Shown: positions 49,917 to 51,960 of the stretch, in pieces
Layout: the number at the start of each line of letters is the position of its first letter
How positions within the stretch are numbered: position 1 is the first letter of the stretch
Origin: Chlamydia trachomatis
GTDB lineage: Bacteria; Chlamydiota; Chlamydiia; Chlamydiales; 2-12-FULL-49-11
Assembly (NCBI GenBank): GCA_945862365.1
Contig: CAMAXK010000005.1
Coordinates: 813 to 64,812 of the forward strand
Length of the DNA stretch: 64,000 nucleotides
Direction of reading: 5' to 3'
The notes under the pieces: generated by a model
What the model was told of the DNA's origin: nothing
What the model saw: the letters and a program-made list of their open reading frames with translations, nothing else
The model's database searches: none
Translations under genes and position numbers: made by a program

Positions 49917-49989
49917 GGCTAGATAGCTCAGTTGGTAGAGCAGAGGACTGAAAATCCTTGTGTCGCCGGTTCAATTCCGGCTCTGGCCA
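49917..49989 (+). tRNA. tRNA-Phe (GAA)
   Basis: A manual cloverleaf fits. The acceptor stem is GGCTAGA/TCTGGCC, the D arm is GCTC-AGTTGGTA-GAGC, and the anticodon arm is GAGGA-CTGAAAA-TCCTT. The variable loop is GTGTC, the T arm is GCCGG-TTCAATT-CCGGC, and the discriminator is A. CCA is not encoded. Confidence 0.93.
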
Positions 49990-50151
49990 TTTTTTCATTT
50001 GTTACTAACACCCTTCTGAAATTTCATTTTTTATAAATGGTTATTAATTACGCCTTTTTGAAAATATAGTGCAAAAAATTGCACAATATCAAGTGAAAAT
50101 AAAACTTGAGTAAAAAGAAGTTTGAAATTAAGTCTAATTAACTTAGACGCT

Positions 50152-50400
50152 TTAATGAATGAAATTTTCAAGACTATTTTGACGTGCGGCAAGAACATGG
50201 GTCGCAGTCAATATTGCGCATAAACTCTTGTATCTTACTTGTGTTGCCGATCCTCCTTTACCCAAATTAGTCGATGGAGAAAGCAAAACAGAGTGCGCCC
50301 TGCATTTTTCTCCTAATTCTGTGCATAAAGGGAAACTCCGTAAGCTAGCGAGAGAGAAATTCATGCCTAAATCCATTGTTTTTCCAAAAGTGAGATACAA
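50152..50400 (-). pseudogene. possible remnant of a paralog of the 52732-53421 gene
   Basis: The 3'-proximal DNA and the C-terminal residues (…LCAILTATHVLAARQNSLE versus …DCLAKVFPAYQQSRLN) weakly parallel the 229-aa gene that follows the second copy of the duplicated block. A competing + strand ORF (50228-50455) leaves coding status unclear. Confidence 0.25.
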
Positions 50401-50459
50401 TCCCTGGGTGACAAGAATGATATCTATAGTTTCGGCTATTCATTGGAACACATAAATTA

Positions 50460-50789
50460 CTAGTCTTCACTAAAAAGCCTGACATTCCATTCTTGAACTA
50501 GTGCAGTTTCTTCATTATCAATGTATTTCTTAAAAGCACTCTTTACGTAATCTGCCTGGCAGTGAATATCAAAAGCCTTTATATCCACATACTCTTGAAG
50601 CAATATGATTGTGTATTTTGATTGTCCTGAAGCATCTGGATGATGAATTTGTCGGGTGGCATGTGCCCGTATGCAGCCACTTTCGTTTTTCCTAGTTAAA
50701 GCCATCACCTTTTTAAGTAAATCCCATAGCTTTTCTTCGCAATTTTCTTTAGGTAACCATTCGGAAACAACAAACACATGACCTGACAT
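50460..50789 (-). CDS. antibiotic-biosynthesis-monooxygenase (ABM/Dabb) domain protein
   Basis: It is 109 aa with a ferredoxin-like pattern (VFVVSEWLPKE..., LLQEYVDIKAFDIHCQADYVK). Confidence 0.65.
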   Translation of the reverse strand: MSGHVFVVSEWLPKENCEEKLWDLLKKVMALTRKNESGCIRAHATRQIHHPDASGQSKYTIILLQEYVDIKAFDIHCQADYVKSAFKKYIDNEETALVQEWNVRLFSED

Positions 50790-50824
50790 ATCACTCCTAT
50801 AATCTTCATCATACAGTCTATTTT

Positions 50825-51682
50825 CTATTTTTCATCGATTAGGTTAACTTCTACGGGGTTAACATCTAGAAAGTTAAATTTGCTGACAACTTTGCGGACG
50901 CTTTTTTTCTCTAACTCTCTTATGGCATTACCGGCAATTTCTCCGCCCTCTTGGGCTGCTTTTATATTTTGGTGAAATCCTTGAGCATCTTTTTGAACAG
51001 CGATTTTTGTTGTAGAAGCTTCTCCCAACATAGTAAAAATTAATTCAAGATCGGTCATATGGTCGCGGAGATTTTGATTTTTGAGACCTTTTAGTTTTTT
51101 ATGTTCGGATGGTTTGAGCCCAAAAGTAGCATCAGCAATTTCTGCAGTGAGGATTGCATATTCCTTTTCCTCTTTCACTCCTCGCTTTTCCCACTCGGTT
51201 GTCAATTGCTCTAAGATAGCGATTCCGCGCATCCGTTTCTCAATCCAATCGTCAGGGTATCCCTTGGCCTTATAGATTGCTCGACCGCGTTTTGCAGCTA
51301 ATTCGGGGTCTTCTATCTCTTGAATTCGTTCGTAACCGACTTTAGCAAGCCAACACTTGAAGGGTTCTGCTTTGGCAGAAGGTATGGATTGAATGATCCG
51401 AAAAATAGTCTCTGTATTGGCAGTATCTGTCTCACGCATTTTTCCATCAGGGGCTACTAATTTCAACTGTACGATTTTTCCGTACAGTTGATCAAACCCT
51501 TCATTTTCAGAAAGTTGTGTCTTTAGATCAGACCAATATCTTCGTGGGTTCTGGCTCTTTGTCAATACTGCTATGATATCGATAATCGAAAAATACCATT
51601 CTCCTTGATGGAGGGTTTTCCGGATTTGCTTGCCCTTAAAGATCGCTATCTTTGAGGATTGTTGTTCTAGTTCATTATCCAT
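50825..51682 (-). CDS. Bro-N domain / DinD-like DNA-damage-inducible (prophage antirepressor-type) protein
   Basis: The N-terminus is Bro-N-like (IRKTLHQGEWYFSIIDIIAVL...RRYWSDLK). The C-terminal region KKLKGLKNQNLRDHMTDLELIFTMLGE resembles E. coli DinD (KGLKKNQKILDHMGSTELAAN) from memory. Confidence 0.7.
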   Translation of the reverse strand: MDNELEQQSSKIAIFKGKQIRKTLHQGEWYFSIIDIIAVLTKSQNPRRYWSDLKTQLSENEGFDQLYGKIVQLKLVAPDGKMRETDTANTETIFRIIQSIPSAKAEPFKCWLAKVGYERIQEIEDPELAAKRGRAIYKAKGYPDDWIEKRMRGIAILEQLTTEWEKRGVKEEKEYAILTAEIADATFGLKPSEHKKLKGLKNQNLRDHMTDLELIFTMLGEASTTKIAVQKDAQGFHQNIKAAQEGGEIAGNAIRELEKKSVRKVVSKFNFLDVNPVEVNLIDEK

Positions 51683-51806
51683 GTCCGCCCTGGATGCAAA
51701 AAATAAATATGGTGGCTATATATTACCTGATAGGGAAATTCTTTGCCTTATTTTTATCCGGAATATATCCGCATTAGCCAATTTCCCCTGTATGATCGTG
51801 TAACGT

Positions 51807-51849
51807 ACTGAAAATCCTTGTGTCGCCGGTTCAATTCCGGCTCTGGGCA
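51807..51849 (+). other. orphan copy of the 3' 43 nt of tRNA-Phe (anticodon loop to discriminator)
   Basis: It is identical to 49947-49989 except for one C to G change in the acceptor 3' strand (ggcca to gggca). There is no 5' half upstream. Confidence 0.85.
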
Positions 51850-51960
51850 TTTTTTCATTTGTTACTCAAAACCTTCTGAAATCTCATCTTTTAATATATT
51901 TTTATAAATAGTAGTAAATATTAGCCTGCCGTATACTGTAGGTAAAAATATGAGGTATTT

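Follow-up and report, generated by a model that had tools for sequence, protein, structure and literature searches.

An integrase-less islet at the tRNA-Phe gene of an environmental chlamydia and its likely origin by site-specific integration

The DNA analysed in this work (hereafter, the window) is a stretch of 64,000 nt from the assembly GCA_945862365.1 (contig CAMAXK010000005.1, positions 813-64,812, forward strand); it represents the portion of the source genome that was considered, and all the positions reported below are window coordinates unless another contig is named. The source organism is an environmental chlamydia, the nearest homologues of its tail-specific protease (Tsp) being 64% identical at best. 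In the window, a tRNA-Phe(GAA) gene is followed, 1860 nt downstream, by an orphan copy of its own 3' half (Table 1). The 1.86-kb segment between them is likely to be an integrase-less islet put into the 3' half of tRNA-Phe by an anticodon-loop-crossing tyrosine integrase. The islet is either decayed or similar to a cis-mobilizable element (CIME), i.e., att-bounded (att, attachment site) and integrase-less, and it is the tRNA-proximal module of a 9.6-kb variable, accessory region.

The gene at the left boundary of the islet is an intact tRNA, in agreement with an earlier note on this DNA, and it is the sole tRNA called by ARAGORN in the window, where the Rfam scan returned no other match; it lies about 120 nt downstream of the Tsp gene (47922-49793). 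The first 40 nt of its 3' half have two exact occurrences, at 49947 and 51807, with 0 matches expected (100 shuffles). Over the 43-nt core the two copies are identical at 42 positions, and the sole mismatch of the second one, C71 to G, breaks the G2-C71 pair of the acceptor stem, as the earlier note had described; ARAGORN does not call the fragment at 51807 as a tRNA. The same note had the repeat ending about 43 nt past the tRNA, with 80 identical positions out of 86. The repeat itself is there, but its extent was underestimated: the repeat search returned 87 nt at 93% identity with a spacing of 1860 nt, and gapped blastn aligned 103 nt at 89% identity (49947-50048 versus 51807-51909). Moreover, a further block (R1) of about 125-165 nt follows, in which positions 50028-50150 (and, more weakly, up to about 50200) match 52619-52739/52785 at 75-80% identity. 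The sequences after both copies are colinear once GNAT is left out of the comparison (core, a flank of about 60 nt, and then R1), and the identity drops with the distance from the core, from 100% (40 nt) to 89% and then to about 78%. No third att copy was found in the window, the next best match being 24/43, and the exact search for the tRNA end plus flank in metagenome contigs did not retrieve any sequence.

The main argument for an integrase comes from the position at which the repeat begins. A scan of species-representative genomes based on Tsp alignment provided 80 loci; tRNA-Phe is located no more than 600 nt downstream of Tsp in 54 out of the 76 evaluable Chlamydiota loci, at a median distance of 99 nt. 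A second copy of the tRNA 3' half was found in eight loci (L021, L025, L026, L049, L059, L067, L068, and L074), 2.1-9.3 kb downstream. All eight repeats, and that of the window, start at one and the same nucleotide of the anticodon loop, (G)ACTGAAAATCC, taken as the integrase core position, and end at GGCCA. This shared boundary argues that the repeat of the window was made by the tRNA-Phe integrase family and not by an arbitrary duplication; together with the comparative data, it supports the footprint of site-specific integration into a tRNA 3' half that the earlier note had proposed.

A tyrosine integrase is present at tRNA-Phe in 11 loci; in ten of them its gene starts 100-400 nt after the tRNA, and in L021 just after the second att copy. 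These integrases match the Pfam Phage_integrase family (9e-35 and 7.8e-29), and the closest solved structures to one of them include the HP1 integrase. L074 represents a complete 4.2-kb unit (tRNA-Phe, integrase, cargo, and attR), and in six of the eight loci with a second copy no integrase of the tRNA-Phe family lies between the repeats. The integrase-less islets harbor a HipA-like pair (L026, 2.1 kb), a SLFN_AlbA_2/HATPase_c_4 protein (L067, 2.4 kb), two AbiEii/AbiEi pairs (L025), a YhcG-type nuclease (L068, with HepT/MNT-like genes, named by eye, after the second copy), or hydantoinase-type metabolic genes (L049 and L059). L021 has the order tRNA-Phe, integrase-less 6.9-kb islet, att', integrase, and its tRNA-proximal and integrase-proximal copies differ by compensatory changes in the T-stem. 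The repeat of L068, like that of the window, runs far past the tRNA (160 nt at 98.75%). According to these data, the statement of the earlier note that such an arrangement is uncommon in chlamydial genomes does not hold for environmental Chlamydiota, since tRNA-Phe is a phylum-wide hotspot at which integrase-less islets are the majority form. Our literature search found no description of a chlamydial tRNA-Phe hotspot. In two of the ten loci with an integrase directly after the tRNA (L024:12332-13441 and L058:5907-7074) the integrase gene at tRNA-Phe is split into two frames; these frameshifts are decay in progress, the route that we propose to integrase-less islets.

The comparison with seven family-level relatives (Tsp 61-64% identical to that of the window) concerned the polymorphism of the site. 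All of them share the backbone orf381-rpsJ-fusA-rpsG-rpsL-Tsp-tRNA-Phe-[variable]-PagL-like-obgE. The length of the variable interval differs: L012 has 0.32 kb, L013 about 2.1 kb, L011 and L016 about 4.2-4.3 kb, and the window 9.6 kb. L012 is essentially an empty site, with 322 nt from tRNA-Phe to the PagL-like gene, so that the empty-site comparison suggested by the earlier note gave a positive answer at the family level only. At most one tRNA-Phe 3' half is present in the seven relatives, and neither Bro-N nor ABM, GNAT, or orf229 was found at the site; the arrangement that would have spoken against an insertion, i.e., both repeat copies around core-like interior genes, was looked for in these relatives and not encountered. 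More generally, GNAT, orf229, orf397, ADH350, orf135, and orf187 have no counterparts in the relatives, and no GNAT homologue occurs at any relative's locus. The flank repeats (the extension of the core and R1) were searched in the relatives L011-L017 and not found. We infer that the tRNA-Phe-obgE interval is a hotspot for defence, toxin-antitoxin, and accessory genes, with the islet at its tRNA-proximal end.

The interior of the islet holds a Bro-N gene, an ABM gene, and a stretch without family matches (50150-50459). All three components had been recognized in the earlier note; the first one, DinD-like in that note, is not a DinD equivalog (see below). The initial 50 nt or so of the stretch are homologous, in a DNA alignment, to the 3' end of orf229 (52732-53421), its open reading frames (ORFs) have no protein-level similarity to orf229 or to other proteins, and its remainder has no detectable relatives. 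Scans for promoters and terminators gave no more than shuffled controls did. A hidden Markov model (HMM) was built from ten chlamydial tRNA-Phe-associated integrases and compared (hmmsearch --max) with all the window ORFs of at least 30 aa; neither an integrase nor an integrase remnant was detected in the window (HMM best E = 0.3; no match with tblastn), which bears out what the earlier note had said of the interior and extends it to the 64 kb. The islet has an intact tRNA gene at one boundary and no integrase inside, and it is therefore classed as an integrase-less derivative or satellite and not as a complete element. As in CIMEs, each of its ends bears an att site, and genes for recombination or transfer are lacking. 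A prophage or a phage satellite of the type of phage-inducible chromosomal islands was rejected, as Bro-N and ABM give the only Pfam/PHROG matches, and the integrase, repressor, replication, and packaging-interference modules are missing from the interior. Only two Bro-N homologues, both distant (36-37%), were retrieved from IMG/VR.

Table 1. Features of the tRNA-Phe locus and of the islet (window coordinates)
Feature	Position	Strand	Description
tRNA-Phe(GAA), intact; attachment site	49917-49989	+	ARAGORN; Rfam RF00005, 72.7 bits
att copy 1	49947-50048	+	core 49947-49989 (anticodon loop to discriminator) and 59 nt of repeated flank
Flank repeat R1	50028-50200	+	75-80% identical to 52619-52785; holds the palindrome GTGCAAAAAATTGCAC at 50069-50084
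Non-coding/remnant stretch	50150-50459		two overlapping ORFs, 82 aa (-) and 75 aa (+); no family match (Pfam, PHROGs)
ABM-domain protein, 109 aa, intact	50460-50789	-	Pfam PF03992, 3.7e-06
Bro-N/DinD-like protein, 285 aa, intact	50825-51682	-	Pfam Bro-N 2.2e-08; phrog_15286 5.7e-87, full-length
Upstream region conserved with the Bro-N gene, putative promoter/operator	51683-51787	-	co-conserved in L002 (to 51778), L093 (to 51787), and L004 (to 51747)
att copy 2, orphan tRNA-Phe 3' half	51807-51909	+	core 51807-51849 with C71 to G, then repeated flank; no ARAGORN tRNA
GNAT acetyltransferase	51961-52656	+	Pfam 4.2e-12; after copy 2, absent from the homologous flank after copy 1
Flank repeat R1'	52619-52785	+	from the 3' end of GNAT, across the intergenic region, to that of orf229
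Whole variable region, tRNA-Phe to PagL-like gene	49990-59570		9.6 kb; followed by the PagL-like backbone gene (59572-60144) and obgE

The history of the Bro-N gene differs from that of the backbone. Its 120 best homologues are 73-94% identical and belong to Parachlamydiales, Rhabdochlamydiaceae, Anoxychlamydiales, and other metagenome-assembled genomes (MAGs) of Chlamydiota; many of them reach 85-94%, versus 64% for the best Tsp relative. On contig L093, the proteins compared with those of the window are 34% (Tsp), 59% (S7), 60% (S10), 70% (EF-G, comparison region 6691-8781), and 79% (S12) identical, whereas its Bro-N (17851-18708), located 5.8 kb downstream of the contig's own tRNA-Phe, shares 90% of the amino acids and 85.8% of the nucleotides (over 977 nt). 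A Bro-N protein 90% identical where EF-G is only 70% identical implies a horizontal spread of the gene among chlamydiae, and these figures show that it has crossed chlamydial family boundaries recently. In L002, a stretch of 1058 nt is 90.5% identical to 50725-51778 in an unrelated context (HSP20 upstream); besides about 96 nt of sequence preceding Bro-N, it retains the 21 initial codons of ABM, which run into a stop, so that the L002 copy derives from a Bro-N-ABM module like that of the window. Other copies lie by tRNA-Leu (L004), by tRNA-Arg (L007, two paralogues), or by tRNA-Thr/Tyr (L095). The homology extends no further than about 15 nt beyond the stop codon and about 65-105 nt ahead of the start codon, limits at which no terminal repeats were found. 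The guanine-cytosine (GC) content of the gene (40.6%) falls in the top 1.7% of the GC windows. Several results thus point to a foreign origin of the cargo, as judged from identities, contexts, and composition. The possibility that Bro-N is a vertically inherited core gene was rejected, given that its contexts differ and its conservation exceeds that of EF-G. The two paralogues of L007 (10001-10858 and 12178-13035) lie directly downstream of tRNA-Arg(TCG), 2.2 kb apart and with 77% nucleotide identity, and flank an Asp/Glu racemase gene; one of the copies is broken in the related contig L009.

As regards function, the protein gives a full-length match to the PADLOC model PDC-S13 (6.1e-115; protein residues 8-278 against positions 3-273 of the 286-position model). 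The PDC families are untested candidates, predicted from their embedding in known defence systems (Payne et al. 2024 preprint, 10.1101/2024.01.29.577857). We also analysed 80 metagenomic Bro-N loci (L095-L174; homologues 59-90% identical, most of them 59-66%), 19 of which have adjoining type I-C-like cas genes; the association holds for 13 out of 48 when loci of at least 5 kb are considered. In these operons, the non-chlamydial homologues (59-66% of amino acids) are typically placed between Cas7/Cas3 and Cas4/Cas1 (e.g., L100:3480-8671 and L146:3043-8523), and that of L117 adjoins an Eco57I/MmeI-type restriction-modification gene. This neighbourhood gives independent support to the defence assignment, and Bro-N is a candidate single-gene defence protein. 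Non-chlamydial homologues occur inside CRISPR-Cas and restriction-modification loci, like the families of the PDC set, whereas the Chlamydiota gene is solo, not within another defence system. It would be a defence-associated DNA-binding protein that spreads horizontally. Our literature search retrieved no description of Bro-N homologues inside type I-C-like CRISPR-Cas operons. The likeness to Escherichia coli DinD (NF008573) is limited to the Bro-N N-terminal domain and to a weak similarity in the C-terminal region (residues 158-254); the protein scores 18.2 bits versus a cut-off of 242, so that the equivalog assignment was rejected, and no inference of RecA modulation is justified. The AlphaFold2 model is poor (mean predicted local distance difference test score 54.9), because the available homologues are all at least 73% identical; a PDB sequence search with Bro-N was empty, and the exact-protein searches with Bro-N and with S7 returned no record. 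In L137, a Bro-N homologue adjoins an IS110 transposase.

The following scenario would account for the locus. A circular DNA carrying a tRNA-Phe 3' half, its flank, an orf229-like remnant, ABM, and Bro-N would have recombined with the resident tRNA gene at the anticodon loop; the intact tRNA would have been rebuilt with the incoming 3' half, and the old half displaced to 51807, where it would later have gained the acceptor-stem mutation and begun to decay. The integrase would have acted in trans or been lost later. By now the element has most likely become fixed and is in slow decay, its cargo genes being still intact. The graded identity of the flanks (100%, 89%, and about 78%) suggests that a related chlamydia may have supplied the incoming DNA from its own tRNA-Phe locus, or that this DNA was a sister of the downstream GNAT-orf229 element and arrived by tandem accretion. 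In tandem arrays, the newest arrival is nearest the tRNA, an order that the copies of L021 illustrate.

Some observations weigh against this reading. The repeat does not stop at the tRNA but goes on for about 225 nt, and the sequence so covered is present after copy 2 as well; such a length is not predicted by the minimal attP x attB model, and an extra assumption (a related donor or the accretion of a sister element) is needed. Neither an integrase nor an excisionase nor a circular junction was seen for this genome within the 64 kb. There is no strain-level empty site: the nearest relatives are 64% identical in Tsp, none closer having been found in the collections, and the polymorphism concerns the family level only. 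Lastly, no tRNA-fragment repeats surround the Bro-N genes of L004 (tRNA-Leu), L007 (tRNA-Arg), and L095 (tRNA-Tyr).

The islet might, on the other hand, be still active, i.e., mobilisable in cis or in trans in the manner of a CIME or a satellite, an integrase located elsewhere in the genome, or on the element of a co-infecting chlamydia, excising and re-integrating it through the att copies. The nearly intact att cores (42/43), the intact cargo genes, and the movement of Bro-N between lineages agree with it; furthermore, the absence of a family integrase between the repeats of six islets out of eight indicates a recurrent state and not a one-off decay, and L021 shows the arrangement that such mobilisation requires. 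We nevertheless consider it unlikely: the window lacks an integrase, no circular or empty junction was observed within it, the mutation of the displaced copy and the divergence of the flanks (11-22%) argue for age, and the spread of the Bro-N cassette, which moves elsewhere without att repeats, does not depend on this mechanism.

Mechanisms that dispense with an integrase can be proposed as well. A circular fragment from a related chlamydia, including the tRNA-Phe 3' half, flank, ABM, and Bro-N, could have entered by a single, Campbell-type crossover within about 270 nt of homology, duplicating it; single crossovers do duplicate long segments like the present one (103 nt plus about 125-165 nt), with a non-tRNA flank at 75-89% identity. 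This would leave unexplained why the left end falls at the same anticodon-loop nucleotide as in the eight loci, integrase-bearing ones included, as the end of a random fragment in a 73-nt gene would lie within 1 nt of that position in only about 4% of cases, and the hypothesis appears rather improbable. An in-place origin is harder still to credit: the tRNA 3' half and the downstream genes would have been duplicated in tandem by a replication or recombination error, after which GNAT and most of an orf229-like gene would have disappeared from copy 1, and ABM and Bro-N been acquired there. The homologous blocks do follow both copies in the same order (att, extension, R1, and the 3' end of orf229), but the model requires three more events (a deletion, a gene replacement, and a boundary that happens to coincide with the integrase core), the interior genes have no duplicates, and the gain and loss of unrelated cargo in the interval of the relatives fit insertions better than duplications. 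The larger tandem segmental duplication that the earlier note had envisaged as an alternative was therefore not found. Both the Campbell-type crossover and the in-place duplication fail on the coincidence of the boundary, which is accounted for by integration at tRNA-Phe.

Among known systems, tRNA-integrated islands and prophages come closest. Phage HP1, which is integrated in tRNA-Leu, is an example of a system with an anticodon-loop-crossing tyrosine integrase; sublocation classes of tRNA integration sites were reportedly set out by Williams in 2002. As in HP1-type elements, one end is an intact tRNA and the other a direct repeat of its sequence from the anticodon loop onward to the 3' terminus, relatives do not have the islet, and a tyrosine integrase is found at the same tRNA in related genomes; unlike them, the islet has neither integrase nor excisionase, is very small, and has a repeat extending about 225 nt past the tRNA. 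In Streptococcus thermophilus, CIMEs derive from or accompany ICESt1/ICESt3, with fda as the target. The islet resembles them in being att-flanked and without recombination or transfer genes, and the tandem accretion with related elements at one site has its parallel in L021, where an integrase-less islet adjoins an integrase-bearing element at a shared att; it differs in that the target is a tRNA and not fda, no cognate integrase-bearing element is present in the window, and mobilisation is putative. The only chlamydial island that our literature search found described is Pam100G of Protochlamydia amoebophila UWE25, a conjugative island of 100 kb located at tandem tRNA-Gly genes, with 17-bp repeats, an F-like tra operon, and transposases (PMC548262). 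It resembles the islet as a chromosomal island enclosed by direct repeats at a tRNA locus, and its third, internal repeat points to a modular history; the islet is only 1.86 kb long, its target is tRNA-Phe, and its core repeat measures 43 nt.

As obligate intracellular bacteria, chlamydiae have the usual reputation of being poor in mobile DNA. The feature of the window is, in itself, an ordinary and well-explained integration scar, real but known in kind, and the phylum-wide pattern and the spread of Bro-N are more interesting by-products than the islet. The tRNA-Phe gene beside tsp represents, in environmental lineages, a phylum-wide landing pad for small islets that carry toxin-antitoxin, abortive-infection, and candidate defence genes, most of them without an integrase of their own. 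This provides a concrete site and an integrase family for testing gene movement between chlamydiae in one host, and a defined att/integrase pair might serve as a genetic tool in organisms whose manipulation is difficult. It is conceivable, albeit doubtful, that the tRNA-Phe islets are actively exchanged, by means of integrases acting in trans, between chlamydiae within one host cell. The Bro-N/PDC-S13 cassette, whose conservation across chlamydial families exceeds that of EF-G and of ribosomal protein S12, would in that case be a currently spreading defence or selfish gene; if true, this would mean that obligate intracellular bacteria have a live mobilome with defence genes, anchored at a single conserved tRNA.

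Further observations concern the genes around the islet and the other loci. The homologues of ABM are 65-89% identical and come from Chlamydiota, Simkaniaceae, and Legionellales MAGs; two of them (P0327 and P0357, 68-69%) are annotated from Tatlockia (Legionella) and Legionellales MAGs, and these matches suggest a gene pool that may be common to amoeba-associated bacteria. In L177, the ABM homologue adjoins obgE among AbiE, YhcG-like, and SLFN_AlbA_2 genes. Downstream of copy 2, orf229 has no family match in any library and no homologue in any locus fetched, and its GC content (40.7%, top 0.8% of the GC windows) is the highest of the region; it would seem to be an orphan gene with a foreign composition. 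In L011, 4.4 kb separate Tsp from tRNA-Phe (11870-16330), versus about 100 nt in most Chlamydiota, so that the upstream side of the tRNA is also able to take insertions. In L068, tandem units of about 117-121 nt stand directly after the tRNA-Phe att copy (12172-12585), with related copies following the second att copy (18119-18226) and at 21334-21570.

Look-ups with GNAT and Tsp retrieved nothing but two short contigs, L001 and L180, that are identical to the window and therefore say nothing about polymorphism. Both belong to another assembly of this population (ERZ27280301): the end of L180 lies about 50 nt past the stop codon of Tsp, near 49843 and just before tRNA-Phe, while L001, which corresponds to window positions 51288-53751, shows that this assembly breaks inside Bro-N. 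Either the repeats and the multi-copy Bro-N genes of the community tangled the assembly graph, or the population is heterogeneous at the island.

Lastly, the GNAT and orf229 genes converge, and R1' spans their ends. R1 includes a perfect 6+4+6 palindrome, GTGCAAAAAATTGCAC, which reads GTGCAAAAAATTGCAT in the second copy (52658-52673) and which may be a protein-binding site or a bidirectional terminator. The 41 nt around it have a weak third copy at 53461-53501, just upstream of orf286.

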